From positions 1 through 53,720 of IMG/VR virus record IMGVR_UViG_3300025809_000027: a stretch of 53,720 nt of DNA. One strand, 5' to 3'. The stretch comes from a virus. Taxonomy: Duplodnaviria; Caudoviricetes. This document shows, one piece after another, positions 75 to 53,720 of this stretch (its first letter is position 1; the number at the start of each line of letters is the position of its first letter). Under the pieces are notes generated by a model, which did not search any database, was not told the DNA's origin, and saw nothing but the letters and a program-made list of their open reading frames with translations. The position numbers and the translations under genes were made by a program.

Positions 75-344
75 ATGAGCTTATTAAGGTTAAATGAGAT
101 ATTAGATAAAGATTATACAGGCAGGGCATTGGCTAAAGAATTAGGGGTTACACCTAATACTGTGAGTAATTGGGTTAAAGGTTATTCTACGCCAAGCGGT
201 GACGACTTACTGAGAATCGCCAAAGTCCTAGACGTGGATGTAAGAGAGCTGTTCCACTCCACGAAAACAAAGGAAGCAGATGAGATTTTGAAACAAGCAA
301 TAAATGACCTGCAAGTGGTTTACTCTAAGATTAAAAAATATTGA
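75..344 (+). CDS. XRE/Cro-CI family HTH transcriptional regulator
   Basis: ALAKELGVTPNTVSNWVKG...LLRIAKVLDV is a classic HTH_3 pattern. Confidence 0.9.
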   Translation: MSLLRLNEILDKDYTGRALAKELGVTPNTVSNWVKGYSTPSGDDLLRIAKVLDVDVRELFHSTKTKEADEILKQAINDLQVVYSKIKKY

Positions 345-367
345 ATAACGTGATTAAAGAAATAACC

Positions 368-488
368 TAACGGTTTGTATATGAAATGTGCGACATTGAA
401 ATAAGAACTAACTAAATAAAAATACATTAATTATGAAATTAAAAATAGAAATCACAAAAAAGGAAAAGCATTTTTTATATACTTTGTT
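368..488. repeat. attC-like hairpin site A
   Basis: TAAC-GGTTT-GTATATGAAATGTGC ... GCATTTTTTATATAC-TTT-GTT; the loop contains ATG 433. Confidence 0.75.
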
Positions 489-648
489 ATGCTTTGTTTT
501 TTTAATATTAAACATGGCTTGCGGTATAATGATAGGTGTGGAAATATTTAAAGACACCAATAGCTTCGGATATAACGCAACCTTAGTATATACAGCTTTA
601 AGTTGCTTTTTCTATTATTATGTAATGTTTCAGCGAAATAAAGCATAA
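433..648 (+). CDS. Small two-TM membrane protein (cassette cargo)
   Basis: Two hydrophobic stretches; its stop TAA is the TAA of the TAAC in site B. Confidence 0.7.
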   Translation: MKLKIEITKKEKHFLYTLLCFVFLILNMACGIMIGVEIFKDTNSFGYNATLVYTALSCFFYYYVMFQRNKA

Positions 649-770
649 CGTTTATGGTATGGTGACGTTGCGACCTTACAGCATGGACTTAATTAATAAA
701 CATAAAACTTTGAGATATGAATAAAGACAATAAGAAAACAGAAACCGAGCAATGCACTATACCAAGTGTT
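646..770. repeat. attC-like hairpin site B
   Basis: TAAC-GTTTA-TGGTATGGTGACGTTGC ... GCAATGCACTATACCA-AGT-GTT; the loop contains ATG 717. Confidence 0.8.
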
Positions 771-998
771 AGCAGTAGTATTTCTCTATGGATGGAAGGA
801 TTCTCTGCTACAGGACAAAGACAAGGTGCAAGTATGATAGGAACTTACCAAGCGAAAAACCTTGATGATGCGGTTAAACAGTATATGGAAACCCATAAGG
901 GCGATGTTGATTGGGATAGGTTTGGCAGAGGCAGACACGCTATTTGGGCTTGTGAAATATTTGATAATGAAAAAGAAGCCCGTAAATCGTTTGGCTAA
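717..998 (+). CDS. Hypothetical protein (cassette cargo)
   Basis: 93 aa ORF; residues EQCTIPSVSSS are encoded by the right arm of site B. Confidence 0.75.
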   Translation: MNKDNKKTETEQCTIPSVSSSISLWMEGFSATGQRQGASMIGTYQAKNLDDAVKQYMETHKGDVDWDRFGRGRHAIWACEIFDNEKEARKSFG

Positions 999-1007
999 TA
1001 TTACTGC

Positions 1008-1046
1008 TAACTACCGTATATGCGTACTAAAAAGTGTCTTAACGGG
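1008..1046. other. Array-terminal half site (putative attI-like landing site)
   Basis: TAACTACCGTATA occurs four times; 1006-1046 is identical to 11596-11636. Confidence 0.6.
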
Positions 1047-1082
1047 CATATATGTCGGGATAATACAACTTTTACAGTATAT

Positions 1083-2471: not shown

Positions 2472-2597
2472 TTAAACCATTTTTTTAATTAATGGAATAC
2501 CTTCTTTTAATCCACCAATGGTTATATCCAAGTCTTCAATACGACATCTTAGCTTATCGATTGCTTCGATTAACTCGTTTAATTTTTCTTCATTCAT
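2472..2597 (-). CDS. 41 aa hypothetical protein (not in the ORF track)
   Basis: MNEEKLNELIEAIDKLRCRIEDLDITIGGLKEGIPLIKKMV; preceded by the shared AAAACCCTACTTATT leader. Confidence 0.55.
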   Translation of the reverse strand: MNEEKLNELIEAIDKLRCRIEDLDITIGGLKEGIPLIKKMV

Positions 2598-2657
2598 AAT
2601 AAGTAGGGTTTTAAGGGTTTTTAATTTAGGTTTATGTAGTTATTAAATTTTTTAAGA

Positions 2658-2825
2658 TTAATCTAGCTGACTAGCAATTGCAATCAAAGATCCAATAACA
2701 GAAAGCCAACAAACTATTTGCACCCACGTACTTGTAATAGATGCTGATTTTGATGCTGATTTTAGGTAGCGATAGATTCCTTCCTGTAATTCTCTATCGG
2801 AGAGTTCGGGTATTTTCTTTGTCAT
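2658..2825 (-). CDS. 55 aa protein with a C-terminal TM helix (not in the ORF track)
   Basis: MTKKIPELSDRELQEGIYRYLKSASKSASITSTWVQIVCWLSVIGSLIAIASQLD; has the shared leader. Confidence 0.6.
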   Translation of the reverse strand: MTKKIPELSDRELQEGIYRYLKSASKSASITSTWVQIVCWLSVIGSLIAIASQLD

Positions 2826-2877
2826 AATAGTAGGTTTTAGGTTTATGGTTTAGTTTAAATAGATCGGGGCAAGATTC

Positions 2878-2906
2878 TAAAGTGGTCAAATTCGACCACT
2901 TTAAAA
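2878..2906. repeat. Near-perfect palindrome TAAAGTGGTCAAATTCGACCACTTTAAAA, copy 1
   Basis: Identical 29-mer at 12740-12768. Confidence 0.8.
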
Positions 2907-2919
2907 TCTATGTATGATA

Positions 2920-3402
2920 TTAAAGACAGTAAGTTTTATAACTAACTATTCCAGAAGACGCAATATTAATTTTTCTTGCATAAGTTTTAAAGGTAAAACT
3001 ATAGATGTTTCCATCATAAAGATTTTCTATATAAGCAAATACGCTCCTGTCATAATCATAATTAGTTATCAATTTTACAAATTCATTTTTCTTCACAATA
3101 TCAATAATACCATTTTCTATGTAATGAAACCTCCAAGACTTATCTTTTTGGCTATTTTTCTCTCGGGTGATTAATTCACCTGTATTTCCTTCTTTTGTTT
3201 TTAGGATGTTATTCCCATTGACATCTCTAAAGTAAATACCTAATGTTTTGTTGTTTAAAACGATTGTTACAATTAAAGGGTGCTTGTCTTTATTTAAGTC
3301 TAAGTAATTGCCTTCAGTTTTGTAAATATGTTGTTTTGAGTTGGTTTTTTTTTCGTCTTGATCTGTTAGACTGGTTTCAGTCCATTCGTTTAAATTAATC
3401 AT
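2920..3402 (-). CDS. Hypothetical accessory protein in the immunity region
   Basis: 160 aa ORF co-oriented with the repressor and integrase. Confidence 0.7.
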   Translation of the reverse strand: MINLNEWTETSLTDQDEKKTNSKQHIYKTEGNYLDLNKDKHPLIVTIVLNNKTLGIYFRDVNGNNILKTKEGNTGELITREKNSQKDKSWRFHYIENGIIDIVKKNEFVKLITNYDYDRSVFAYIENLYDGNIYSFTFKTYARKINIASSGIVSYKTYCL

Positions 3403-3423: not shown

Positions 3424-3801
3424 TTAAATTATAGGGATTATTAAGTTTTTGTTTTTATCTAGTCTAAGTTCCATGATGCTGAGTCGTGCTTCTTGACCTT
3501 TAATAAGTTGTTCTAAAAGCTCAACTCTTTTTAATAGTAAACTATCAATAGGCGTTTCTTTTGGTTTAACAAGCATCGTTCCTTTGCCTGTTAGAATCCA
3601 TTCATAACTGATCTCGGGGTATCTGTTTGTTATTTTTCTAGCAAGTCCTGCTGAAATTCCATTGCGACCGTTTATGACGTTATCTATCATTGTGCCACTT
3701 GTGTGTCCTATTGACATACCAAAAGCCCTTCTACTCAATTTAGCATGAGATATAATGGCTAGCATTATTTCTGGGAAACTTTTTTCTTCTTGATTTTTCA
3801 T
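3424..3801 (-). CDS. CI-like phage repressor (HTH, no S24 peptidase domain)
   Basis: HTH followed by YPEISYEWILTGKG, typical of Bacteroidetes prophage repressors; divergent from the early operon. Confidence 0.8.
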   Translation of the reverse strand: MKNQEEKSFPEIMLAIISHAKLSRRAFGMSIGHTSGTMIDNVINGRNGISAGLARKITNRYPEISYEWILTGKGTMLVKPKETPIDSLLLKRVELLEQLIKGQEARLSIMELRLDKNKNLIIPII

Positions 3802-4920: not shown

Positions 4921-5346
4921 ATGAATCCAGAAATTAAACAAAAACTAGAAGAATTAACTGATTTAATATTGAAATCCACCAAAGGAGATCAAAACAATGT
5001 AGATGCTACAATCAAAGGAAATCAATACAATCAAGGTGTTACAATCGGAGGATGGCAAGACAATGTAGATGCTACAATCAAAGGAATTCAAGACAATGTA
5101 GGTGCTACAATCGAAGGAAGTCAAAACAATCAAGGTGTTACAATCGGAGGATGGCAAGACAATGTAGATGCTACAATCAAAGAAAGTCAAGACAATAGAA
5201 GCGCTACAATCAAAGGAAGTCAAAACAATCAAGGTGCTACAATCGAAGGAAAAATGATTATAGATTCCAAAACAAATTTTAAAAAAGGTATTTGGAAAGT
5301 TGAAAAAACAGGGTTGGTTGAATATGAATTAACTCCTAAAAAATAA
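4921..5346 (+). CDS. Protein with 8 x 11-aa repeats (probable beta-solenoid)
   Basis: GxQxNxxATI[KEG] repeated eight times. Confidence 0.75.
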   Translation: MNPEIKQKLEELTDLILKSTKGDQNNVDATIKGNQYNQGVTIGGWQDNVDATIKGIQDNVGATIEGSQNNQGVTIGGWQDNVDATIKESQDNRSATIKGSQNNQGATIEGKMIIDSKTNFKKGIWKVEKTGLVEYELTPKK

Positions 5347-8445: not shown

Positions 8446-8635
8446 TAACGTTACTTGTGTATGATTAGTAGCGAATTATTAAAACTAAAACTTATAAAAA
8501 TGAAAGAAATAAACACACAAATTATCCAAACAGGATTTACACTTGATAGATTGCACCAAGATGGCAAAATAGACAATGAAGCCTACACAATTTTAAAAAA
8601 TAGGAATAAACAAGCTATTAATTATACACGTTGTT
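8446..8635. repeat. attC-like hairpin site C (long loop)
   Basis: TAAC-GTTACTT-GTGTATGATTAGTAGC ... GCTATTAATTATACAC-GTT-GTT; the loop contains ATG 8500. Confidence 0.8.
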
Positions 8636-8799
8636 CTGAGCTTTTGATTTGCCTTGACAATGGTAATTATGAAATGCTAACAAACTATAAATTATACAAG
8701 TTAGTTTCTGAAAGTAAAGGTTATTATAATCTATATGATGATGATGGAAAATTAGTTCAAATGAGCAAAGTTCGCTTCAAAAAAGTAGTGGCAAATTAA
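8500..8799 (+). CDS. Hypothetical protein (cassette cargo); ATG 8500 preferred over GTG 8455
   Basis: A-rich leader before ATG 8500; QAINYTRCS is encoded by the hairpin arm. Confidence 0.7.
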   Translation: MKEINTQIIQTGFTLDRLHQDGKIDNEAYTILKNRNKQAINYTRCSELLICLDNGNYEMLTNYKLYKLVSESKGYYNLYDDDGKLVQMSKVRFKKVVAN

Positions 8800-8807
8800 T
8801 TACTTAG

Positions 8808-8851
8808 AACACCCGTATAAAAGCCGTTTCAATGGCGGTTTATACTAAGTT
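8808..8851. repeat. Short attC-like hairpin site D
   Basis: AAC-ACCC-GTATAAAAGCCGTT-TC-AATGGCGGTTTATAC-TAA-GTT with an extra G in the 3' arm; its reverse complement resembles site H. Confidence 0.8.
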
Positions 8852-10704: not shown

Positions 10705-11028
10705 ATGAGCCTAGAAAAAATAACACCAAAAAACACGGAGTACGCAAAGCAGACTTTAAGAAATAGAGGTGATATGTTTAGCGTCTATATTTTAAAGCTA
10801 ATAGAAAGCTTTGAAAACTCGAAAGACAACCCGATCAAAGACAATCGAATAGTGAGCGACCGAACGTTTGCATATCGTTTAAAGTCTCATCTGAAAGATG
10901 TTAGAGCGGAATGTCAGATGGGACAGGAGGAACTCGAATATCTTACAGGGGTTGCAGACAGGCTCTTAGAATATCAAAAACAAACAATGCCAGACGATGA
11001 GAAATGGTTTTTTAAGAATCTTCAGTAA
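10705..11028 (+). CDS. Hypothetical protein
   Basis: ORF whose stop codon is the TAA of site E. Confidence 0.7.
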   Translation: MSLEKITPKNTEYAKQTLRNRGDMFSVYILKLIESFENSKDNPIKDNRIVSDRTFAYRLKSHLKDVRAECQMGQEELEYLTGVADRLLEYQKQTMPDDEKWFFKNLQ

Positions 11029-11116
11029 CGGGTTTGGCTATGATTATGTAGCCTTGAAACACAGAACTTTGAATTAAATATAAACTTTAATAAGGGTATT
11101 AATTATAGCCCTTGTT
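11026..11116. repeat. attC-like hairpin site E
   Basis: TAAC-GGGTTT-GGCTATGATTATGTAGCC ... GGGTATTAATTATAGCC-CTT-GTT. Confidence 0.8.
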
Positions 11117-11132
11117 AGCAACTTTTAAAATT

Positions 11133-11480: not shown

Positions 11481-11600
11481 ACCCAACAAAGTGAACTGGT
11501 TTGTGATTGTTTGCCAATGAGTACGCAAGTAAGCACTATAAATGGTAGATACATTTGCTGTACTTGTAATAAACCACTCTTATCACAAACTTGTGGCTAA
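11352..11600 (+). CDS. Small Cys-rich (Zn-binding?) cassette cargo protein
   Basis: CDC...CCTC; the stop TAA overlaps the terminal half site. Confidence 0.65.
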   Translation: MVQEIEMTKEEQMTMYMKCSKKELCEMLIEANRHLKNLPIHVVTQQSELVCDCLPMSTQVSTINGRYICCTCNKPLLSQTCG

Positions 11601-11636
11601 CTACCGTATATGCGTACTAAAAAGTGTCTTAACGGG
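11598..11636. other. Array-terminal half site, second copy
   Basis: Identical to 1008-1046. Confidence 0.6.
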
Positions 11637-11752
11637 ATTGTATAAGGAACGTTGCGTTTAGGAAACCAAAAATTAACGATTAGAAATAAAGAAAATTAAT
11701 ATTAACAGACCTTTGGTATAGCACAAATTAGCAATGTTTTTTATACGGTGTT
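11630..11752. repeat. attC-like hairpin site G
   Basis: TAAC-GGGATT-GTATAAGGAACGTTGC ... GCAATGTTTTTTATAC-GGT-GTT. Confidence 0.8.
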
Positions 11753-11803
11753 ACCCACTTTTTAAAAAGCCGTGCGTGAGGTACGAGGGCAAATACACAA
11801 ACT

Positions 11804-13225: not shown

Positions 13226-13257
13226 CTTGTATATATTTAAGTAAACACGTATCTTTG
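13226..13257 (+). promoter_or_regulatory. Bacteroidetes sigma-A-type promoter
   Basis: CTTG-N20-TATCTTTG. Confidence 0.65.
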
Positions 13258-13296
13258 AAGTGTTGCAAGGAAGCAATGAAACTAAAAAACAACAAT

Positions 13297-18331: not shown

Positions 18332-19608
18332 TTAAAACGCAGTCCGTTTACGATCCATTATACCAAACTGACAAAAGAATCATCCTCTTAACAGGAGGGC
18401 GTGGGGGTGCCAAGTCGTTTAACGCTTCCACTTTTTTAGAACGATTAACATTTGAGAAGGGTCACAAGATACTTTTTTCAAGGTTCACCTTAACTTCAGC
18501 AGAGTTATCTATTATACCAGAGTTCCAAGAAAAGATAAACCTAGAAGGAACGTCTCAATACTTCAAAACAACCAAAAAAGAAATAATAAACACAAAGTCA
18601 AACAGTGTTTTAATGTTTCGAGGTATCAACACCTCGCAAGGGAATCAGACAGCGAATCTAAAGTCCATACAAGGACTCACCACCTTTGTAGTTGATGAGG
18701 CAGAGGAATGGGTGAGCGAGGATGATTATGATAAACTAAGACTATCGATTAGAACTAAAGGGGTTCAAAACAGAATTATAATCATCATGAATCCCACCAA
18801 CTCGAATCATTGGGTTTATGAGAAGTATATCAAAAACACACATAAGATTGTGCAGGTTGATGGCGTGGACGTTCAGATTAGCACCCACCCACAAGTGGAG
18901 CACATCCACACTACTTATTTAGACAATCAAGAAAACGTTTCTAAAGACTTTTTGCAAGATATTGAAGATCTAAGGAATCAGGCAATTTCAAGGCGTAACC
19001 AAGGCACTACAGACGCTGAAAAAAAACAACTCTGGAACACTTCTAAATACGCCTTTAAGGTCGTTGGTAGGTGGGCTGACCAAGCAGAAGGGGTTATCTT
19101 CACCTATACTGAAGGAGAGTTTGACGACAGGCTTCCGTACTGTTACGGGCAAGATTTTGGGTTCAGTAATGACCCCACAACCCTTGTTAAGATAGCGGTT
19201 GACATCAAGCGAAAGAAAATGTATTGGAAGGAATATCTCCACAAAACACACATGACCACAGACCAGATTTATAGTCATAATTTAGCGATCACTGGAAAGA
19301 AGGAGTTAATAATGGCAGACGGTCACGAAGTGCGTTTGGTTTTCGAGCTTAAGAAAAGAGGTTTAAACATTATAGGCTACACCACGCCACCAAACGGCAT
19401 ACGTGAGGGCTTAATCTCAATGCAAGATTATGAGCATATAATTGACTCAGGCAGCTCGAACATTAAAGATGAATTCAATAATTATGTTTGGTCGGATAAA
19501 AAAGCGAACATTCCAATAGACGACTGGAATCACTGTATAGACGGAGGTCGTTACGCATTCAAGAAACTAACCACCAGAAAACGGGTTACAACGTATCGTC
19601 AGTATTGA
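18328..19608 (+). CDS. terL: Terminase large subunit, PBSX/SPP1-like
   Basis: GGRGGAKS, VDEAEE, MNP, DFGFSNDP, NHCIDGGRYA. Confidence 0.93.
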   Translation: MIKTQSVYDPLYQTDKRIILLTGGRGGAKSFNASTFLERLTFEKGHKILFSRFTLTSAELSIIPEFQEKINLEGTSQYFKTTKKEIINTKSNSVLMFRGINTSQGNQTANLKSIQGLTTFVVDEAEEWVSEDDYDKLRLSIRTKGVQNRIIIIMNPTNSNHWVYEKYIKNTHKIVQVDGVDVQISTHPQVEHIHTTYLDNQENVSKDFLQDIEDLRNQAISRRNQGTTDAEKKQLWNTSKYAFKVVGRWADQAEGVIFTYTEGEFDDRLPYCYGQDFGFSNDPTTLVKIAVDIKRKKMYWKEYLHKTHMTTDQIYSHNLAITGKKELIMADGHEVRLVFELKKRGLNIIGYTTPPNGIREGLISMQDYEHIIDSGSSNIKDEFNNYVWSDKKANIPIDDWNHCIDGGRYAFKKLTTRKRVTTYRQY

Positions 19609-19641
19609 CGTGCTTTTCCCGTGCTACTTACGTGCTACTTA
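19609..19641 (+). promoter_or_regulatory. 11-bp-period CGTGCT repeats (putative late activator site 1)
   Basis: CGTGCTTTTCC CGTGCTACTTA CGTGCTACTTA; also at 28242 and 40614. Confidence 0.7.
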
Positions 19642-19707
19642 AAAATGAATACTTACAAAAGGCTATATTTTTGGGTCAATTAAGTATAATTTTTAAAAAA
19701 AGATAAG

Positions 19708-28190: not shown

Positions 28191-28241
28191 AAGTAGGGTT
28201 TTAGGGCGTAAATATATAAAAAATACTTTAAACACTCCCAA

Positions 28242-28274
28242 CGTGCTTTTCCCGTGCTTTTCCCGTGCTACTTA
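28242..28274 (+). promoter_or_regulatory. 11-bp-period CGTGCT repeats (putative late activator site 2)
   Basis: CGTGCTTTTCC x2 plus CGTGCTACTTA. Confidence 0.7.
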
Positions 28275-28310
28275 AAAACATAAAAAAAGGATTCCCCTTA
28301 AATTTCAGCC

Positions 28311-40613: not shown

Positions 40614-40657
40614 TGTGCTACTACCGTGCTTTTCCCGTGCTTTTCCCGTGCTACTTA
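40614..40657 (+). promoter_or_regulatory. 11-bp-period CGTGCT repeats (putative late activator site 3)
   Basis: TGTGCTACTAC, CGTGCTTTTCC x2, CGTGCTACTTA. Confidence 0.7.
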
Positions 40658-40711
40658 AAAAGTCATTTTAGAAATTCCATATATTTTTGAATGAAATAAA
40701 ATCTAAAAAAG

Positions 40712-46255: not shown

Positions 46256-46668
46256 AACACCTAAATATAGCACTTAGTGAATTTGGTGTCAAAGAAATAG
46301 TAGGAGGGCGACACAATCCAGAGGTCTTAAAATACTTTCATGATACAGGTCACGAGTGGGTTAAGACCGACGAAACAGCGTGGTGTAGTGTCTTTATGAG
46401 CTGGGTTTGTAAAAAGTCCGATCTACCGTATTCAAGGGCTTTAGATGCGCGTAGTTGGCTTAATATCGGTTGTGAGGTTGATACTGCATACATAGGTGAT
46501 TTAGTTGTCTTTTCACGTGGCAATCCAAACGGGTGGCAAGGTCATGTAGGGCTTTACATAAGAGAAACAACAAATTGGATTTATGTTTTAGGAGGAAATC
46601 AAAACAATCAGGTAAAAATATCTAAGTACCCAAAAACCCGATTGTTACAATACAGACGTTTGACATGA
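46252..46668 (+). CDS. Endolysin, TIGR02594/NlpC-P60/CHAP-like peptidase
   Basis: DETAWCS...ARSW...GDLVVF...GHVG...LGGNQ. Confidence 0.85.
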   Translation: MKHLNIALSEFGVKEIVGGRHNPEVLKYFHDTGHEWVKTDETAWCSVFMSWVCKKSDLPYSRALDARSWLNIGCEVDTAYIGDLVVFSRGNPNGWQGHVGLYIRETTNWIYVLGGNQNNQVKISKYPKTRLLQYRRLT

Positions 46669-47321
46669 AAAAACTAAACTACATAATTATAGCAGTCTTG
46701 ACGGTGTTTTGTTTCTATTTATGGAGGAATGGCCAGAAAATGCAATACACCACCACTAACAATATTGGAGCCTTAACAGACAGTCTCGGACATTACCAAA
46801 CCAAAGAAGGGGCGTGGGTTGCAGAAAAGAAGCTGTTTCAGGGCACTGAGAAGGATTTAAAGCAAATCATAAAGAGTAAGGACGCTGCATTTCAAAAACT
46901 CCTAAAATCGTTTAAAAAGCCTGTTGCAGCAGCGGTTATAAAAACAGTTACCCAAATAGATACGGTATTCATTCCTTATAAAACTAAAATCGATTTACCT
47001 GTATTTGAGTTGTCATTTAGCAAAAATGCAAAACACTACTCAATCAACGGGATTTCCACAAATGAAGGGATTAATATTTTAGATATTTCAATTCCAAACA
47101 GTCAAAACGTGGTGGTCGGAAAAAAGAAAATAGGATGGTTTAAGCGTGAGTACAGAATTGAGGTAGCAAATTCTAATCCACACATAAAAGTAACGGACTT
47201 AGATGGTTTTTCATTTCGTCCAAAACCTAAGCGATTTGGGTTGGGCGTTTTCGTTGGCTACTCCACAGATTTAGAGGTGGTTATAGGTGTAGGGGTTGCC
47301 TATAATCTACTTTCGTTTTAA
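46665..47321 (+). CDS. Spanin-like lysis protein
   Basis: N-terminal TM, coiled coil, C-terminal amphipathic beta strands (GLGVFVGY...YNLLSF). Confidence 0.55.
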   Translation: MKKLNYIIIAVLTVFCFYLWRNGQKMQYTTTNNIGALTDSLGHYQTKEGAWVAEKKLFQGTEKDLKQIIKSKDAAFQKLLKSFKKPVAAAVIKTVTQIDTVFIPYKTKIDLPVFELSFSKNAKHYSINGISTNEGINILDISIPNSQNVVVGKKKIGWFKREYRIEVANSNPHIKVTDLDGFSFRPKPKRFGLGVFVGYSTDLEVVIGVGVAYNLLSF

Positions 47322-47381
47322 AAGTTATTTGCATTTTGTTTGTATTTTATTTAGATTCGTTGAACTATAAACCAATTTAGC

Positions 47382-47795
47382 GTGTCAAAAAAAATTAAAA
47401 AAGTAAAGAGATACCCTCATAAATTAGCAGAGAATTACCCATCAAACAGCCTGTATAACTGGGAATTATTTAGTGATAAAAAATTCAAATTAAGACAAGA
47501 AGCGACTCTACTAATCTTACAAGATCACATCCGTAACTACGATATGTTTTGGGTGACGAATGATTTTATCAACTTTGATAATGAAAAAAAAGATAATATC
47601 TTCAGAACCGAAGAGAGGTTGAACGGAATATCAGCCCTGTTTGTTTTGGGTATGATTGAGAGTCCTGTGCATCAAGATGACTTACTTAAAGTTGCACAAG
47701 ATATAATTGAAGGAACTAGAGGTTCTACTATGTCAATTAATGATCGTGCTGAGATGGTTGAAATAAGTTGGAGGCAAAGGATTCTACATTTGTAG
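47382..47795 (+). CDS. Hypothetical protein
   Basis: 137 aa ORF after the lysis genes. Confidence 0.6.
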   Translation: MSKKIKKVKRYPHKLAENYPSNSLYNWELFSDKKFKLRQEATLLILQDHIRNYDMFWVTNDFINFDNEKKDNIFRTEERLNGISALFVLGMIESPVHQDDLLKVAQDIIEGTRGSTMSINDRAEMVEISWRQRILHL

Positions 47796-47805
47796 GGTCG
47801 AGCGT

Positions 47806-48000
47806 TTAAAAACTAGCTTCCTCATAAATTTGGTAGTCAAAATACCAAGAGCTTTTTTCGTTTGCATTTTCTGTCCTTAATATTTCCTCTGCTGATTTTT
47901 TAGCACTTTCATAACTGCTATGTTCTTCTTTCAAATTATGACTATCAACGTCAATATGTGGTTCTCTATGGCTATTTCGCCAAACAATTATATATCCCAT
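47806..48000 (-). CDS. Hypothetical protein (cassette cargo)
   Basis: Bounded by the inverted pair TCGAGCGTTT (about 47798) and AAACGCTCGA (48078). Confidence 0.65.
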   Translation of the reverse strand: MGYIIVWRNSHREPHIDVDSHNLKEEHSSYESAKKSAEEILRTENANEKSSWYFDYQIYEEASF

Positions 48001-48087
48001 AATTTTCTAATTTTAATTTGAACTATTAAGTCTTTCTTAATAGTTGGGTGCTTACCTTATTCATGCGGTGAGCATTGAAACGCTCGA

Positions 48088-48132
48088 TAACAGTTGCTAA
48101 ACCGCCATTAAAACGGCGTTTAGCTTTGTGTT
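48088..48132. repeat. Short attC-like hairpin site H (opposite orientation to A-G)
   Basis: TAAC-AGTT-GCTAAACCGCCATT-AA-AACGGCGTTTAGC-TTTGT-GTT with one extra base. Confidence 0.8.
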
Positions 48133-48142
48133 GTAAATAATA

Positions 48143-48373
48143 CTACTTAGGTAAGTGTAAATCATAATCACCATTACATCTATTGCACTTTACTTCATTG
48201 TATTTAAGTTCGTTCCATCTACACGTAGTACAATCAACAACAACAGGTGTATTTAATACAGGTTCAGTTCTTTTTGCCCTGCGCTCGTTTAACCATTTAG
48301 CTAGGGTTTCTTTTGTTTCTTTTGCAAATACTTCATCTACTTGCTTTGCTAATTTTTTTAAGTTTATGTTCAT
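48143..48373 (-). CDS. Small Zn-finger protein (cassette cargo)
   Basis: CTTC...CNRC; PVLNTPVVVD is encoded by a hairpin arm. Confidence 0.65.
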   Translation of the reverse strand: MNINLKKLAKQVDEVFAKETKETLAKWLNERRAKRTEPVLNTPVVVDCTTCRWNELKYNEVKCNRCNGDYDLHLPK

Positions 48374-48387
48374 TGTATTTATCCGTT
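48239..48387. repeat. Decayed attC-like site I
   Basis: AAC-AAC-AGGTGTATTTAATACA ... TGTATTTATCC-GTT; one arm mostly deleted. Confidence 0.5.
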
Positions 48388-48529
48388 AAAAAATAATAAA
48401 AAAGGCTACTAATAATTCAATTACACAAGCCCAAGCGATTATTTTGAGAAATATATCTATAATATCAGGTTTTCCTAAATTCTTTAAGAATAAATACTGA
48501 AGTATGGTTAAAAATTCTTTTGTTTTCAT
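48386..48529 (-). CDS. 47 aa TM microprotein (not in the ORF track)
   Basis: MKTKEFLTIL...IAWACVIELLVAFFIIF; the stop TAA is part of the TAAC of site I. Confidence 0.5.
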   Translation of the reverse strand: MKTKEFLTILQYLFLKNLGKPDIIDIFLKIIAWACVIELLVAFFIIF

Positions 48530-48696
48530 TATTGCTCACATTTAAATAGCCACCTTTTGCATTTAGGACATTGTTCTTGTTCGTGCCCTGCGTTTACCAT
48601 GTTAGCAGTCCAGTTATGCAAATCAATATACCTTAATTTTTTAAGGTTATGGTCTGAGCAAGGATTAGTTTTGAGATTTTCAGGTTTTACAGGCAT
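48529..48696 (-). CDS. 55 aa Cys/His protein (not in the ORF track)
   Basis: MPVKPENLKTNPCSDH...QCPKCKRWLFKCEQ; TAATG coupling. Confidence 0.55.
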   Translation of the reverse strand: MPVKPENLKTNPCSDHNLKKLRYIDLHNWTANMVNAGHEQEQCPKCKRWLFKCEQ

Positions 48697-48697
48697 C

Positions 48698-48835
48698 TTA
48701 TTTAGGGTTTAGTTCTGCATACTCTTGTTCAGTTAGTATTACGTACTTGCCACCTTTTAAAATCATTTCTCCTTTTATTTCAAAAGTCATTGTGTTGTCA
48801 TTAAAATCTCCTGTTACTAATTGTGCTTTTATCAT
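48698..48835 (-). CDS. 45 aa hypothetical protein (not in the ORF track)
   Basis: MIKAQLVTGDFNDNTMTFEIKGEMILKGGKYVILTEQEYAELNPK, tightly packed with its neighbours. Confidence 0.55.
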   Translation of the reverse strand: MIKAQLVTGDFNDNTMTFEIKGEMILKGGKYVILTEQEYAELNPK

Positions 48836-48876
48836 TGTTTTTTAGTGTATATAGTATTTATTTGCCTTCATCTTAT

Positions 48877-49086
48877 TTAGGGTTTAGTTTTAAGTGATTC
48901 AATTAATTGGTCAGCAATCCGAACTGCAAATCCTGATGCGTCCTCGTGTATATTAAATCCTCCTGCAAATAATCCTTGCATTGCTTTAGCTGCAAAGTAT
49001 TCTCTTTTAGTCACCCCTAACTCTTGTTCCCATACTCCTTCTTTTTGGCTTATTGGGTGTATGAATTTTGATTCTGTTTTTGCCAT
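48877..49086 (-). CDS. Conserved small phage protein
   Basis: GVTKREYFAAKAMQG motif, widespread in phages. Confidence 0.75.
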   Translation of the reverse strand: MAKTESKFIHPISQKEGVWEQELGVTKREYFAAKAMQGLFAGGFNIHEDASGFAVRIADQLIESLKTKP

Positions 49087-49105
49087 AATTATATTTATTT
49101 AGGGT

Positions 49106-49306
49106 TTAGTTTGTTTTTAAAGGTTTTGCATATTTTGGTAATTCATTTTTTACTTCATCATAATTAGAAACACTTATTTTAGCATCCCAATTACCAGATT
49201 CAGTTCCTAAAAATTTAACGTCTTTAAAGTACTTTTTTACAAAAGGTTTAAATTCATTTCTTGTAAATAAGTTTCTTGTGTGTGTGTAAGTTAATGTAGT
49301 TGTCAT
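49106..49306 (-). CDS. Hypothetical protein
   Basis: First ORF of the leftward operon, divergent from the HTH gene. Confidence 0.65.
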   Translation of the reverse strand: MTTTLTYTHTRNLFTRNEFKPFVKKYFKDVKFLGTESGNWDAKISVSNYDEVKNELPKYAKPLKTN

Positions 49307-49457
49307 AACCTTTGTTTTAAATTATATTTAAATACAAATAATATCATTATTATTAAAGCAAAAATACAAAACATTTAACACATAACAAAATAATATTTAC
49401 ATTAATTTACTAATAATCTCGTTTTATTTTGTATATTTGCTTAAAATAAAGATATAA

Positions 49458-49724
49458 ATGAGCTTATTAAGGTTAAATGAGATATTAGATAAAGATTATA
49501 CAGGCAGGGCGTTGGCTAAAGAATTAGGGGTCACGCCTAATACTGTGAGTAATTGGGTTAAAGGTAAATCAACACCAAGTGGTGACGACTTACTGAGAAT
49601 CGCCAAAGCCCTAGACGTGGATGTAAGAGATCTTTTCCATTCCACGAAAACAAAGGAAGCAGACGATATTTTGAAAAAAGCAATAAATGACTTGCAAGTC
49701 GTTTATTCTAAGATTAAAAAATAA
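49458..49724 (+). CDS. XRE-family HTH regulator, second copy
   Basis: Near-identical to 75-344. Confidence 0.9.
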   Translation: MSLLRLNEILDKDYTGRALAKELGVTPNTVSNWVKGKSTPSGDDLLRIAKALDVDVRDLFHSTKTKEADDILKKAINDLQVVYSKIKK

Positions 49725-49734
49725 AACAACTAAA

Positions 49735-50028
49735 ATGGAATTAATACACACATACAGAGGTGCTAGAGAATTAAAGCATATACGGTTTGGTTTTGATGAC
49801 GAGAAAGAATTTATAAATAGATTTAACTTATCAATTATAACTGCAAAAAAACTTTGCAACTATTTAGAAAAAAATAACAAAGTTGTAGACATGACGGAAA
49901 GCTATGACCCGCAATCTGGTTGGAGTGGCTTTAACTTCATCATAGGAGACCAAGACCTTTCTGTGAATGGTTTTTGCTTTAGTCCTGAACGGGTGGATAG
50001 TTTTTTAATAAAGAATAAAGATAACTAA
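49735..50028 (+). CDS. Hypothetical protein (ATG 49735 preferred)
   Basis: A-rich leader; avoids overlap with the HTH gene. Confidence 0.65.
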   Translation: MELIHTYRGARELKHIRFGFDDEKEFINRFNLSIITAKKLCNYLEKNNKVVDMTESYDPQSGWSGFNFIIGDQDLSVNGFCFSPERVDSFLIKNKDN

Positions 50029-50035
50029 AAAACAA

Positions 50036-50230
50036 ATGAGCATTATAACCCTAGAAGGCAAGGCGTATGAAGTAAGCGAAGCACATCTTAAAATGCTACT
50101 CGATAAACAGAAACAAATTAATGATAAGCCATACTATCACGGAAGCGATGTTGAAATGGACGGCTTTATAAATACGCTAAAGCCATCATTCAAATGCCTT
50201 GGTTATATTGAATTTGACTTTAGACTTTAA
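50036..50230 (+). CDS. Hypothetical protein
   Basis: Ends 2 nt before site J. Confidence 0.6.
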   Translation: MSIITLEGKAYEVSEAHLKMLLDKQKQINDKPYYHGSDVEMDGFINTLKPSFKCLGYIEFDFRL

Positions 50231-50232
50231 GA

Positions 50233-50291
50233 TAACGGACTTGGGTATGAATAAGCGATAGCGACCCGTAGGGTTATTTATACCCTGTGTT
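50233..50291. repeat. attC-like hairpin site J
   Basis: TAAC-GGACTT-GGGTATGAATAAGC ... GTTATTTATACCC-TGT-GTT. Confidence 0.8.
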
Positions 50292-50326
50292 AGCCATCTG
50301 GTGCGGATTTTAAATGAAATATTGAA

Positions 50327-50728
50327 ATGAAAGACTTAACTGATAAAGAATTTTTTGAAGTCCCTAATAAGGTGCAGTATATCTATATGATGGGTATGAT
50401 GAAGCAGCCCATTGGCTCAAGCACTTATGAAAAAGCTATCAAAGAACATCCTGAATACTTTCCTGATGAAGTTGAACATAGAAAAAAATGGGCTGCGATA
50501 CCGCAAGAAGTACACGATAAATACTGGGAAGAATATTGGAAGATTGAAGAAGAAGTAATGAAAGATGTATCACCAAGCAAAGGTATTATGGGTTGGATAG
50601 ATGACCAAGAAGGATATAGCGAATGGAATAAGAAATGGACTGAAGCAAACGAAAAAGCTAAACCTTTGCGTGAAGCATTACACAAAAAATTCTATTCCGA
50701 ATATGGTATTGAATGGAACGGCTGGTAG
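50327..50728 (+). CDS. Hypothetical protein (cassette cargo)
   Basis: Bounded by GTTAGC...GTGC and GCAC...GCTAAC. Confidence 0.75.
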   Translation: MKDLTDKEFFEVPNKVQYIYMMGMMKQPIGSSTYEKAIKEHPEYFPDEVEHRKKWAAIPQEVHDKYWEEYWKIEEEVMKDVSPSKGIMGWIDDQEGYSEWNKKWTEANEKAKPLREALHKKFYSEYGIEWNGW

Positions 50729-50738
50729 CACTTGTTGC

Positions 50739-50751
50739 TAACTACCGTATA
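50739..50751. other. Array-terminal half site TAACTACCGTATA, fourth copy
   Basis: Exact 13-mer at the position homologous to 1008. Confidence 0.6.
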
Positions 50752-50813
50752 TGTCAACAAAAGCCCGTATTAACGGGACTATGTGTCGGGATAACACAAC
50801 TTTTACAGCACAT

Positions 50814-50915
50814 TTAAAAATCAGGACTTTGCTCAATTATCATTTTCCGATTCACCTCTTTAACAACAGTAGCATAACGCTTTGTCATTAATTCAGATTG
50901 ATGCCCGTACAAATC
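50814..50915 (-). pseudogene. 3' remnant of an integrase-1 allele
   Basis: Encodes DLYGHQSELMTKRYATVVKEVNRKMIIEQSPDF-stop, matching 1083-1184 with mostly synonymous changes. Confidence 0.88.
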
Positions 50916-50916
50916 T

Positions 50917-52122
50917 TTAATACTTCAACAACTTACTATAATCATCTGGAAGCTCAATATCATTTACTTGAATATAACCGTAGATAGCTTTACTTGTGTG
51001 GCCCGTAATTAATGACAGTTTTGTAACCGTCTCACTTTTAGAAAGTGTTTTGCGCAACTCCAAATATATTTTAGTTATAAAAGTATAACGGAAATGATAA
51101 AGCGTAAATTCTGGATCAATATTATTTTTCTTTCTAAACTTCAAAAATTCCTTACTGTAAAAACCACGCCTATTAATTTCGGTGGTCTCGTTCCAGTCAG
51201 TATTTAAGGGTTTAAAAATATAACCCTCTTTTCCTTTTACAAAATCTTTTAGTTTGTCTAATAAAATAGAAGGAATAATCTTTGTCTTTTGCGCTTTGGT
51301 TTTCGTCTCAATCCGAATTACATTTTTTTCAAAATCAATATCACTTACTTTAATCCTCACAACCTCCAGGGGTCTCCAAAACATGTGACCAACAAAATAA
51401 ATAAACATCAGCATCGTGGGATCCTGAACCGTCAACAGCTTAACAATATTATTAACTTCATCAGCGGTATAGACTTTGACGGGCTTTTTGATTACTTTTT
51501 TATTGCGAATTTCCTTGATGAAGTTAAACTCAATATAACTTTCATCTGAAAGAATGTTAAAAATAGAACTCAAAGCTATTTTACAATTGTTCCTGTTTTT
51601 TGCCCCAGAGAATTGATTTAAGAACTGAGACACGTGACGCTTATTAATTTCAGTAATAGCTACACGTAACTCGTTATTCTTGCTTAAAAATGCCTTAAAT
51701 TGCTTGACACGGCTAAAATAGTCCTTATAAGTTGTTTGTTTTACTTCTTTCTCTTTTATAGACAGCGCATAATCTAAACAGGCTTCAGCCGTGTAGTTTT
51801 CAGAAGATATATTAATTTCATGGGGGGACCACCCTTTTTTCAAAAAATCATTGACTGTTTTTTTAATCAGCTTCAAATGATGCAGCCGTTCTTTTTTAGT
51901 TTTGAATCTACGATTGACGCTAAAAGTGATCGGAGTTTGTCTTTTCATCACCCCTGAGGCTTCATCTATGAAGGAATAGTACACATACCAACGTTTTGAC
52001 AGGTTAAAATCTTTGCCCCCGTGATATATTTTTGGCGATATGTAGTTCTTTGCTCCCATTTTTTTCTTCTTACTGTATGCGGTTTTGTATGCGGTAAGAA
52101 TTTCATTGGTTAAAAAAGCCAT
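50917..52122 (-). CDS. int: Phage tyrosine integrase 2
   Basis: FWRPLEV, YHFRYTF, ITGHTS...YGYI motifs; the start could also be ATG 52059. Confidence 0.9.
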   Translation of the reverse strand: MAFLTNEILTAYKTAYSKKKKMGAKNYISPKIYHGGKDFNLSKRWYVYYSFIDEASGVMKRQTPITFSVNRRFKTKKERLHHLKLIKKTVNDFLKKGWSPHEINISSENYTAEACLDYALSIKEKEVKQTTYKDYFSRVKQFKAFLSKNNELRVAITEINKRHVSQFLNQFSGAKNRNNCKIALSSIFNILSDESYIEFNFIKEIRNKKVIKKPVKVYTADEVNNIVKLLTVQDPTMLMFIYFVGHMFWRPLEVVRIKVSDIDFEKNVIRIETKTKAQKTKIIPSILLDKLKDFVKGKEGYIFKPLNTDWNETTEINRRGFYSKEFLKFRKKNNIDPEFTLYHFRYTFITKIYLELRKTLSKSETVTKLSLITGHTSKAIYGYIQVNDIELPDDYSKLLKY

Positions 52123-52312
52123 TGATTTATAGAGTTAAATAACTTAAAACCAATGACTTGAAATTGTAGCGAGAGCGGGGCACGATCCCGCGACCTCCGG
52201 GTTATGAACCGCCAAAAATAGGTGCTAAAAAAATTAAATCATTGATTTACAGTCTGTTGATTTTTTACTAAATGTTAAAATAAGGCGTTTTGTATGCGGT
52301 TTTGTATGCGGT
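52074..52312. other. attP-like region 2: tRNA core flanked by TGTATGCGGT arm-type repeats
   Basis: Repeats at 52074, 52086, 52291 and 52303; CATTGATTTA on both sides of the core. Confidence 0.78.
52166..52208 (-). other. 3' half of a tRNA with CAT anticodon (tRNA-Met type), att core
   Basis: Reverse complement TTCATAA-CCCGG-AGGTC-GCGGG-ATCGTGC-CCCGC-TCTCGCT-AC; no 5' half. Confidence 0.8.
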
Positions 52313-52368
52313 CTGTTTTTTCAATAATCTATACACGTTATTTTTATGTGTAAAGAAAATTTGATAAT

Positions 52369-53406
52369 CTATGTATAATATTTAACAGTTTCATTTAACT
52401 CGTTTCCAAAATTATAAATATCATCAATAGAATTTATTAAATGTTTCACCTCTTTTTTAGACGCATCAAATAAGCCTATATACTTACTTCTGCCGTCAAG
52501 GTATAGCCTACATATTGGCTTGCGATTATTGTCATCTAGTAAAACACCAAAGTAGGATTGAGTATCCCTATGGGTGACTCGTTCAACTGGAATCGATTTT
52601 CTTAGTATTGCAACTAAAATTCTAAATGCGTCAATCTCTTCTTCGGTTGTTATTATCTTACTTTGCTCCTCAATAACAATTGGCTCAGCAACCGTTTCTT
52701 TTGTGATTGCACTTTGTAGCCGATCGCTTACCTTGTCACTTATGAGTTGAGAAATGCCCTTAGGAACGATGGTTTTAAATAGGTCAACTACTTTTTTAGT
52801 CATCATACTACTGGTTATTCTGGAAGCGAAAAATTTAGCAAAATCATCAGATGTTTCAGTAATTTCTTGTTCAAATATTGACTTAACCTCATGGATATAT
52901 TTCAAACTTGAAGCATTGGACGTTATTTTGCTTGCGTCAAAATTATCTTTATGAAACTTTTGAACCTCCTGTATTGTAGTGTCCTTTAGACTATTTAATG
53001 ATAGTGTCAAAAAAGGTTTTTCATCCATTATATTAGGCTTGGCTAAGTCCGTAAAAAACAAAAAACTATTTCCGTTAGTTAGAATGCCGAACTTGGTTTT
53101 AGAAACATTAAAATATCTATGTAGTTGAGATGAATGCTTGGAAAGTTTTTCTTTCCAGTGTTTGCATTCAATTATAATTATAGGTTTACCGTCGTGAATT
53201 ACTGCATAATCAACTTTTTCACCTTTTTTTATTCCTAAATCAGCGGTAAATTCGGGAATAACTTCTCTGGGGTCAAATACATTATACCCCAATAAACCAA
53301 TAAAAGGCAAAACGAACGCTGTTTTTGTAGCCTCCTCTGTGTTTATTTCTGATTTTAATTCCTTAAATTTTTCTGCTAGGGTTTCTAGTCTCGATTTTAA
53401 TTCCAT
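52369..53406 (-). CDS. HsdR N-terminal (type I restriction endonuclease-like) domain protein
   Basis: TEEATK...PFI..LGY.VFDP.EV.PEF...GEKVDYA...IECK...LTNG; C-terminal RDTQSYFGVLLDDNNRKPICRL. Confidence 0.85.
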   Translation of the reverse strand: MELKSRLETLAEKFKELKSEINTEEATKTAFVLPFIGLLGYNVFDPREVIPEFTADLGIKKGEKVDYAVIHDGKPIIIIECKHWKEKLSKHSSQLHRYFNVSKTKFGILTNGNSFLFFTDLAKPNIMDEKPFLTLSLNSLKDTTIQEVQKFHKDNFDASKITSNASSLKYIHEVKSIFEQEITETSDDFAKFFASRITSSMMTKKVVDLFKTIVPKGISQLISDKVSDRLQSAITKETVAEPIVIEEQSKIITTEEEIDAFRILVAILRKSIPVERVTHRDTQSYFGVLLDDNNRKPICRLYLDGRSKYIGLFDASKKEVKHLINSIDDIYNFGNELNETVKYYT

Positions 53407-53438
53407 GATAATAAATAGGGTTTAGTTTATGGTTTAGT

Positions 53439-53720
53439 TTAAATAGATCGGGGCATTAAATTTTTTTTGGTATCAAATAGTGTTTCAAGATTTTCAATTC
53501 TTGAAGCTTGTGCGTTAATTTCTAAGGACTGTAACTTTATACGAGCGTCCTGACCTTCAGAAATACGCTCTAAGACTTCAACTCTTTTTAACAGTAAACT
53601 ATCAACAGGCGTTTCTTTTGGTTTAACAAGCATCGTTCCTTTGCCTGTTAGAATCCATTCATAACTGATCTCGGGGTATCTGTTTGTTATTTTTCTAGCA
53701 AGTCCTGCTGAAATTCCATT
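53439..53720 (-). CDS. CI-like repressor, second copy (5' end outside the window)
   Basis: 53581-53720 matches 3524-3663; the C-terminus differs. Confidence 0.8.
   Translation of the reverse strand, partial: NGISAGLARKITNRYPEISYEWILTGKGTMLVKPKETPVDSLLLKRVEVLERISEGQDARIKLQSLEINAQASRIENLETLFDTKKNLMPRSI

Follow-up and report, generated by a model that had tools for sequence, protein, structure and literature searches.

At the ends of prophages, accessory-gene hotspots (morons, P2-type) keep a fixed spot by the integrase or attachment site and hold cargo that varies among related phages, and to our knowledge their gene boundaries are not each marked by a defined recombination site. Xer-dependent mobile elements of the CTX phage type use folded single-stranded sites, the phage entering the chromosome. 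Here, we examine the viral record IMGVR_UViG_3300025809_000027, one linear contig of 53,720 bases taken whole and called the window, and in it the slot between a helix-turn-helix (HTH) gene and the gene of a tyrosine recombinase (integrase 1), where two passes of the contig hold different small open reading frames (ORFs). This HTH-to-integrase stretch is probably an integron-like cassette array in a temperate flavobacterial phage, and the site-specific nature of the exchange of its contents is well supported. As in the prophage-end hotspots, a fixed position on the integrase side goes with varying cargo, and the present array has boundary sites as well.

The nearest prior art is the report of Qi et al. 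2023 (PMC9892861), in whose available text clusters of attC sites without an integrase (CALINs) were predicted with IntegronFinder and HattCI in 17 phages, virulent and temperate, with at least two sites each, Polaribacter phage P12002L among them, and where IntI1 recombined 5 of 6 tested phage sites, one from P12002L, in E. coli. The presence of attC-type sites without IntI is what both cases share; the difference is that no natural cassette turnover is described in that text, whose main part does not name the Polaribacter phage Freya treated below and whose Polaribacter passages name P12002L. The closest functional analogue, by another mechanism, is PeSL in T4-type phages, for which the available text of PMC2839356 and PMC4122927 describes hyperplastic regions of unknown small ORFs with conserved promoter-plus-stem-loop flanks, closely related phages that have gained, lost or replaced sequence at these motifs, and homologous recombination between the repeated motifs; unlike these, the present joints fall on a single tetranucleotide with hardly any identity beside it. 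Literature searches, as far as the texts they reached extend, found no description of the present system.

The slot behind the HTH gene and its alleles

The first-pass annotation, made from the sequence alone, had claimed that the same slot carries different cassettes in two phage copies, and the ORF coordinates it gave for both copies (433-648 and 717-998 in copy 1; two ORFs plus 50327-50728 in copy 2) all check out. The same slot indeed holds different contents: the variable segments 341-1004 (664 bases) and 49724-50735 (1012 bases) have no significant similarity, with a best blastn E of 0.018 over 23 nt and a best tblastx E of 0.097, and none of the cassette proteins of the two copies matches another. 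Homology picks up again at T-GCTAAC-TACCGTATATG, placed by self-BLAST at 1005 versus 50736, one base earlier than annotated (1006 versus 50737). On the left, it ends at 340/49723, 9 and 7 bases short of the next YAAC (ATAAC ending at 349 and ACAAC ending at 49730). The proposal that the exchange is bounded at the crossover AAC thus stands for the right boundary, and other boundaries described below also lie near a YAAC, whereas the left boundary falls 7-9 bases before the AAC. Homology reaching well upstream of the AAC, which would have spoken against exchange, was not seen, and the exchange reading stands.

The contents of the slot are small proteins with few relatives, among which the 71-amino acid (aa) product of 433-648 is hydrophobic by eye and has no Pfam or PHROG match, and the 93-aa product of 717-998 matches phrog_26055 (E 5.4e-16) and, in the protein atlas, only unnamed viral clusters. 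In copy 2, the 97-aa product of 49735-50028 matches phrog_14725 (E 2.7e-5), the 64-aa product of 50036-50230 has no match in Pfam or PHROG, and the 133-aa product of 50327-50728 has no family in these two or in the protein atlas, which gave nothing usable for it. Around these ORFs lie inverted repeats: the arms 365-391 and 466-492 of cassette 1 pair at -5.0 kcal/mol, with the 3' arm inside the ORF; the hairpin 643-774 has its AAC at 647-649 and its GTT at 768-770, and its arms pair at -7.6 kcal/mol; and the compact attC-like hairpin 50230-50295 of copy 2 (AAC 50234-50236, GTT 50289-50291) pairs at -9.0 kcal/mol, with an R-box pair GATAAC/GTTAGC and a 12-bp L stem.

Marine metagenomes contain at least five alleles of the slot, which answers the proposal of the annotation to look for further ones. 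Metagenome contigs were scanned with the HTH protein, giving 80 loci of 214 relatives, five of them close (85-100% identity). Two of these, L028 and L026, carry the copy-2 allele, L028 being an independent contig that equals 49554-53221 at 99.8% over 3668 bases. A third, L029, shares bases 250-372 of copy 1 without a difference, which takes the match as far as CCTAAC/G (a slash marks the cut throughout), then has 735 new bases and regains the window at 1008 (TAAC/TACCG) at 89.6%, running into integrase 1; its insert consists of three small ORFs, and behind every one of them stands a site (TTATTGTTTACAAC, TAATTGCCTACAAC and GCACATAAC). Another, L027, with an HTH gene 85% identical, holds other ORFs and then AAAGGTAAC and GTTTGCTAAC. 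In the last, L025, ATAAC/ is followed at once by an ORF of about 100 aa that starts with GTG and ends at CTTGTGCATAAC, and the first 12 bases of this ORF are bases 350-361 of copy 1. Window 350-371 looks like the remnant of a deletion outside a site, and because copy 1 keeps only these 12 bases of the L025 ORF, one event at the slot would not have taken place at a site. Among viral contigs, the HTH protein has relatives only at 48% identity or less, and a search through integrase 1 gave no close relative there (0 of 55 candidate stretches) and a single match in genome contigs, 25% identical.

The right end of the array is a terminal site block that recurs elsewhere in the window. The identity between 1006-1046 and 11596-11636 begins at GCTAAC and stops three bases after the second TTAAC, after which the loci diverge. 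The 13-mer TAACTACCGTATA within it occurs four times in the window, at 1008, 11598, 13118 and 50739, each time after a run of small ORFs, and the terminal half-sites at 11598 and 13118 have no integrase nearby. Two viral contigs carry the exact 17-mer GCTAACTACCGTATATG, one in a coding-looking stretch and one in an intergenic one, and both were rejected as relatives of the window. Counted as offsets from YAAC, the boundaries are -7 for copy 1 versus copy 2 on the right, +1 (left) and -4 (right) for copy 1 versus L029, and -6 (left) and +3 (right) for the block 1006-1046 = 11596-11636, so that 5 of the 7 window and allele boundaries lie from -7 to +3 bases from a YAAC, the exceptions being the copy 1/copy 2 left boundary and the L025 break. 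At a density of about one YAAC per 96 bases per strand, a lone coincidence means little, and what counts is how many coincidences there are and how exact they are. A YAAC no more than 14 bases after the stop codon was found in 21 of 80 genes versus 11.3 expected (p = 0.003), a modest excess.

Table 1. Features of the slot, its surroundings and the overlap between the two passes of the contig (aa, amino acids; positions in the window)
Feature	Position	Strand	Remarks
HTH gene, copy 1	75-344	+	Cro/CI-type; Pfam HTH_3 E 1.9e-13; conserved left anchor of the slot
Site ATAAC and 22-base remnant	345-371	+	ATAAC 345-349; remnant ends CCTAAC (366-371)
Cassette 1	372-649	+	5' arm after AAC; ORF 433-648 (71 aa); end GCATAAC (643-649)
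Cassette 2	650-1011	+	hairpin 643-774; ORF 717-998 (93 aa); end ATTACTGCTAAC
Array-terminal site block	1005-1046	+	TGCTAAC/TACCGTATATG... as far as second TTAAC
Integrase 1	1083-2222	minus	379 aa; phage-type tyrosine recombinase; Pfam Phage_integrase E 2.3e-13; convergent on the array
Third copy of terminal block	11596-11636	+	41/41 identical to 1006-1046; end of another small-ORF run
HTH gene, copy 2	49458-49724	+	followed by site ACAAC (49726-49730)
Copy-2 cassette with two ORFs	49731-50236	+	ORFs 49735-50028 (97 aa) and 50036-50230 (64 aa); end GATAAC
Copy-2 cassette with one ORF	50237-50742	+	hairpin 50230-50295; ORF 50327-50728 (133 aa); end CTTGTTGCTAAC
Terminal site and 3' stub of integrase-1-like gene	50736-50775 (site); 50814-50912 (stub)	minus (stub)	stub of 32 codons; 87.2% to 1005-1181
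Integrase 2	50917-52122	minus	401 aa; 26% identical to integrase 1
Endonuclease gene	52369-53406	minus	345 aa; phrog_4225 E 4e-127; HSDR_N domain; second pass only
End-overlap match	1-340 = 49384-49723		94.7%; self-BLAST
End-overlap match	1005-1181 = 50736-50912		87.2%; self-BLAST
End-overlap match	2824-2871 = 53408-53455		self-BLAST
End-overlap match	3512-3663 = 53569-53720		96.7%; self-BLAST

Turnover in Freya isolates and anatomy of the sites

Bases 1-2500 of the window have a sole match among 50,697 phage records, namely 647-779, at 82%, in nine records of the cultured Polaribacter phage Freya. The shared block is exactly one hairpin, with different ORFs on either side, and in Freya, its neighbors are small ORFs, with the gene of a 271-aa 'integrase' farther downstream. 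The 93-aa ORF of the window and the Freya ORF have only residues 1-22 in common, because the first codons of the 93-aa ORF sit inside the shared hairpin. The genomes of the Freya isolates range from 43,978 to 48,920 bases, and every other form differs from Freya_10 at this place only. The sites of Freya_10 are Fr76 (...TTGTTTACAAC/), S0 (CTTGTTTACAAC/), S1 (AATTGTTACCAAC/), S2 (GCTTTTTACCAAC/), and S3 (AATTGTTGCTAAC/, 47 bases before the integrase start). The left side of Fr76 is joined to the right side of S3 in Freya_1, and the same right side follows S0-left in Freya_2 (with the length of Freya_3 and Freya_4), S1-left in Freya_5, and S2-left in Freya_9; Freya_8 joins S0-left to S1-right, and in Freya_6 (with the length of Freya_7), S1-left and S3-right enclose 441 new bases, which hold two small ORFs and end at ATTACTACCAAC/.

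All six forms (Freya_1, 2, 5, 6, 8 and 9) are thus deletions or replacements relative to Freya_10, the joint in every case coming directly behind a YAAC. For the four Freya pairs that were measured, the identity between the parents extends 3-4 bases leftward from the cut and not at all rightward, and shared words of 6-8 bases within 40 bases of the cuts were left unused; given this short identity and the neglect of the longer words, a site-specific enzyme, and not short-homology recombination, is the better account of the joints. The Freya sites S0 and S2 lie about 125 and about 160 bases downstream of a stop codon, and the window site at 371 lies 27 bases past the HTH stop codon. The sister species Danklef has the same kind of site. 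The gene of the Xer-like recombinase is truncated there: the alignment covers only residues 96-271, and the coding sequence annotated as 'integrase' in Danklef_1 and Danklef_5 is 132 bases long. The Danklef length variants were considered as site-joined forms and rejected, given that the extra DNA of Danklef_5 has an HNH endonuclease gene upstream of the array, a different mechanism. In the description of Freya by Bartlau et al. (PMC8776804), a size range is given in the available text, and the words 'indel', 'cassette', 'variable region' and 'deletion' are absent from the main text.

Although otherwise unrelated at the DNA level, the window phage and Freya also share a promoter-like block, TATCTTTGAAG with a GTTGCAA..GAAGCAA hairpin behind it, which stands just before a start codon, at about 13230-13290 in the window and at about 1200-1260 in Freya_10.

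The site at the end of a cassette is often (A)TTGTTnnYAAC or ATTACTnCYAAC, and sometimes YAAC alone. In most sites, the AAC is followed by G(G/T)N2-6 TGTAT(A/G) and, 50-120 bases on, by the mirror TTATAC N GT GTT(A/G)(G/A), and the resulting layout, YAAC - spacer - TGTATAA-type box ... TTATAC-type box - spacer - GTTRR, is that of an integron attC site. We compiled 20 sites, 16 of which have a GTT partner 44-150 bases on and form an imperfect inverted repeat with AAC and GTT ends, as in attC-type sites and CALINs; clear cases are 50230-50295, 11023-11120, 643-774, 365-492 and 11627-11756. When the arms only (27 bases each, with the AAC-GTT pairing forced) were folded, the 16 sites gave a median of -4.75 kcal/mol versus -0.7 for 545 other plus-strand YAACs (Mann-Whitney p = 2.4e-5). 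The best sites have an R-box pair, a spacer of 3-6 bases, and a stem of 10-16 bp. The span is 52 bases at 50230-50295, 84 at 11023-11120, 114-118 in seven sites (643-774, 11627-11756, 365-492, Freya S0, S1 and Fr76, and 535-663 of L029), and about 290 in one site.

The variable parts of the stem differ between sites, each matching its own partner, and most mismatches on the ORF-sense strand place a G against a T. In 9 of 11 sites, the arms fold more stably on this strand (mean -6.45 versus -4.74, Wilcoxon p = 0.0049), and the spacers are unequal. The start codon lies inside the repeat, and in 365-492 and 643-774, the first codons do too. A single consensus structure for seven sites of 128-132 bases, aligned with MAFFT, was ruled out because the spacer lengths vary. 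Elsewhere in the window, the ORF 8461-8799 sits between AATAAC/ and TTAGAAC/ (8449-8810), and 3' of 8810 there is a short hairpin of its own (ACCCGTATAAAAGCCG...CGGTTTATAC TAA GTTAT); 8449-8810 fits a solo site that may have received a cassette.

Candidate enzymes and the weighing of explanations

In the mechanism that we favor, a cassette would be one or two small ORFs ending in a short YAAC site, and the next cassette would usually open with the 5' arm of an imperfect inverted repeat whose 3' arm ends in GTT 50-120 bases on, with a likely promoter and often the start codon in the loop and with a 3' arm that can be coding. Cassettes would be lost, gained or replaced by strand exchange at the AAC, in an integron-type site-specific recombination on the ORF-sense strand, with the ORFs reversed relative to classical integron cassettes. 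We infer that a tyrosine recombinase is the exchanger, that a folded single strand is its substrate, and that the loop holds the promoter. Like integron arrays, the phage arrays have small, mostly unknown ORFs, R''-spacer-L''...L'-spacer-R' sites with AAC and GTT ends, exchange at the AAC/GTT triplet, and a terminal site without a clear partner that resembles attI; the better folding of one strand in most of the sites compared would suit an integron site, and an RNA structure too. Unlike in integrons, there is no IntI gene in the phage and the neighboring window integrase is convergent, not divergent; the ORFs occupy the strand equivalent to the bottom strand of integrons, opposite to the customary orientation; expression signals seem to come with each cassette, in the loop, and the 3' arm may be coding; and many sites span 114-118 bases, with A+T-rich L boxes of the TGTATAA type.

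With regard to the enzyme, integrases 1 and 2 are the only tyrosine recombinases in the window (PF00589), which has no serine recombinase and no RecT or ERF homologue, nor an IntI with its extra domain, nor an attI with a promoter beside a divergent intI, its integrase being convergent on the array. A host integron integrase is the candidate that we rank first. An integron integrase above the curated cut-off is present in 113 of 401 sampled Bacteroidota genomes, and 3 of the 6 Bacteroidota integrases that were inspected have clear cassette arrays beside them, whose attC sites mostly span 76 or 110-112 bases and have R boxes RYATAAC / GTTATRY and G+C-rich L boxes. The host enzyme is thus a live candidate, but the phage sites are not simply host attC sites. 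A low-G+C Bacteroidota locus beside an IntI gene (L122) was also considered, and it has no recognizable array.

The candidate ranked second is a small Xer-like recombinase as in Freya, of which the window has none. The 271-aa Freya recombinase is Xer-like, with XerA 4A8E as the nearest solved structure (E 2.2e-27); it reaches 96.5 bits with TIGR02249, and IntI4 2A3V aligns over its N-terminal half only. It adjoins the terminal site at 47 bases, in the orientation of intI to attI after a strand flip, and Freya also encodes RecT. In this adjacency of a small Xer-like recombinase and a terminal site, and in a plausible hairpin substrate, Freya is like the CTX-type elements, and it is unlike them in that no dif-like site was recognized and that the present elements are cassettes inside the phage. 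Integrase 1 or integrase 2 is the candidate ranked last, since each has its own attP and the two further terminal half-sites are far from any integrase, for which reasons they probably do not do the exchange.

Several results weigh against an integron-like array. The window has no integron integrase, with TIGR02249 scores of 48.0 bits for integrase 1 and 46.2 for integrase 2 and a cut-off of 265. For 4 of the 20 compiled sites, no GTT lies in range as a partner, and several others pair weakly; the L boxes of the phage sites are unlike those of Bacteroidota chromosomal attC sites. When whole segments were folded, sites and controls were not distinguished (p = 0.12), and the arms-only test was used instead. 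RNA structure would explain the strand bias equally well. Matches to a weight matrix built on 13 sites of Freya and Danklef are not enriched in the window, with 26 hits versus 22.7 in shuffled sequence at 8 bits or more and 4 versus 3.0 at 12 bits, and the top 30 hits include only 8810 and 50742 of the proposed window sites. The sites were picked partly by eye from motif and position, and two of them, wB and Fr76, are homologous and not independent. At the slot itself, the left boundary of copy 1 against copy 2 is less sharp than the right one, and L025 departs from copy 1 twelve bases past an AAC. An excised circle or a joint inside 49730-50742 was found in none of the contigs of four metagenome runs, and contigs drop rare forms.

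One alternative is a homologous shuffling of promoter-plus-hairpin modules between ORFs, as in PeSL, in which general or phage-encoded recombination would act on short, similar modules repeated along the genome, the AAC being merely their best-conserved part. Shuffling of small ORFs by PeSL is documented in the available text of PMC2839356 and PMC4122927, the present elements contain regulatory-looking conserved motifs such as ACTTTGAATTAAATA before start codons, the long promoter-like block near 13230-13290 is common to the window and Freya, the latter encodes RecT, and the linear site motif is too weak to stand out in the genome. Homologous exchange should, however, fall anywhere in the repeated motif, and in the four measured Freya pairs it did not: it took place within an identical run of 3-4 bases, leaving TATAACAA, AATTGTT, TGTATAA and AGCGTTTT, all within 40 bases, unused, and in all six forms at the same position of the site. 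The window has neither RecT nor ERF, moreover, and the flanks of recombining sites are otherwise dissimilar, so that we regard this explanation as rather unlikely. It is quite improbable that ordinary mosaicism accounts for the data, with illegitimate breaks anywhere, survivors between genes, hairpins that are RNA elements of the sense strand, such as processing sites, terminators or translational controls, and TAAC arising from TAA plus C. The strand bias suits RNA as well as DNA, in 9 of the 21 genes that have a YAAC at most 14 bases past the stop codon the C follows that codon directly, the L025 break is not at an AAC, and the joints from 48529 to 49330 and from 52372 to 53425 are at neither AAC nor GTT; nevertheless, exact joints at one tetranucleotide in all six Freya forms are not expected from random breaks, used sites such as Freya S0 and S2 and window 371 are far from stop codons, and one 41-base block bounded by AAC at both ends is present at two loci.

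A misassembled metagenome contig as the origin of the two copies and their contents is very improbable indeed. The contig is linear and makes about 1.09 turns (109%) of a 49,383-base unit by self-BLAST, its second pass differing from the first, and both junctions look attP-like, unlike a prophage end, because arm repeats are kept on both sides of a tRNA-like core: direct repeats TATGTACAGTTT near 2270 and at 2433-2470 for integrase 1, and TTTGTATGCGG at 52072-52100 and 52288-52315, around a tRNA-Met-like core, for integrase 2. ARAGORN found no whole tRNA in the window. We aligned the contigs of four marine metagenome runs to 46500-53720. In run X1, record 5 spans 49481-50769 with zero differences at a depth of 15.3 (the copy-2 allele), and record 6, a separate contig at a depth of 32.7, covers 49481-49723 with 18 differences and then continues into copy-1 sequence, reading the 21 bases directly after base 340. 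Since the alleles are separate contigs of unequal depth, the depth being only a weak hint, the two passes probably represent two genotypes that occur together and that the assembler chained, and not one tandem molecule or tandem prophage. All of this bears only on the one-molecule question, given that each allele was independently reproduced, copy 2 by L028, L026 and contigs of the four runs, and copy 1 by L029 (both ends) and an X1 contig. Since L028 and the X1 contig reproduce it, copy 2 does not owe its local arrangement to a single assembly error, and the comparison between the alleles holds whether or not both share one molecule. The 'two phage copies' of the annotation are, therefore, two real alleles that probably do not lie on one molecule.

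Contigs of X1, X2 and X3 read beyond 50912 into integrase-1-like sequence, and therefore, full-length integrase-1-like versions of the copy-2 allele exist. In the window, 50814-52315 is a swapped integration module, in which the integrase-1-like stub abuts the stop codon of integrase 2. Other joints lie outside the slot: contigs of all four runs pass from 48529 to 49330, skipping 800 bases in a second variable block of small minus-strand genes (47806-49330), in which further joints run from 48840 to 49094 and from 48529 to 49095 with short sides of 22-31 bases, and an X1 contig passes from 52372 to 53425, skipping exactly the endonuclease gene. AAC or GTT sites are absent at the joints 48529 to 49330, 48840 to 49094, 52372 to 53425 and others; with short sides of 21-46 bases, these joints outside the slot were kept out of the evidence. 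At the place equivalent to the endonuclease gene, the first pass has other small genes (2472-3402). The ORF 4921-5346 holds tandem direct repeats of about 33-99 bases at 4980-5252 (80-91% identity by self-BLAST), and a 37-base block occurs three times, at 19608-19645, 28241-28278 and 40625-40661, two of them identical, ahead of late gene blocks.

Meaning for phage accessory genes

What is new here is natural cassette turnover at the AAC, both in a multi-allelic slot and in cultured isolates, together with the reversed orientation of the ORFs with expression signals inside the hairpin, and the absence of IntI together with an Xer-like neighbor in one lineage. As a wider proposal, which we put forward tentatively and as something less than probable, flavobacterial phages may have an integron-like cassette system of their own, with reversed cassettes, a promoter in an attC-like hairpin, a non-IntI recombinase, and trade across families. 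If this is true, the recombinase would be the small Xer-like enzyme beside the terminal site, in phages of the Freya type, or a host enzyme, single accessory genes would be traded across unrelated phage families, and cassettes could shuttle to and from host integrons.

Mosaic phage genomes rarely offer a defined molecular rule for the movement of a single accessory gene, and here there is one, a four-base joint beside a foldable site, which is directly testable, having been seen in a metagenomic temperate phage and in cultured Freya isolates on Polaribacter sp. It gives a means to delimit 'cassettes' in marine viromes. Such a system would extend integron-type recombination to phages without IntI, and it would explain the turnover of tiny orphan ORFs, possibly anti-defense or host-takeover genes, within one bloom season.

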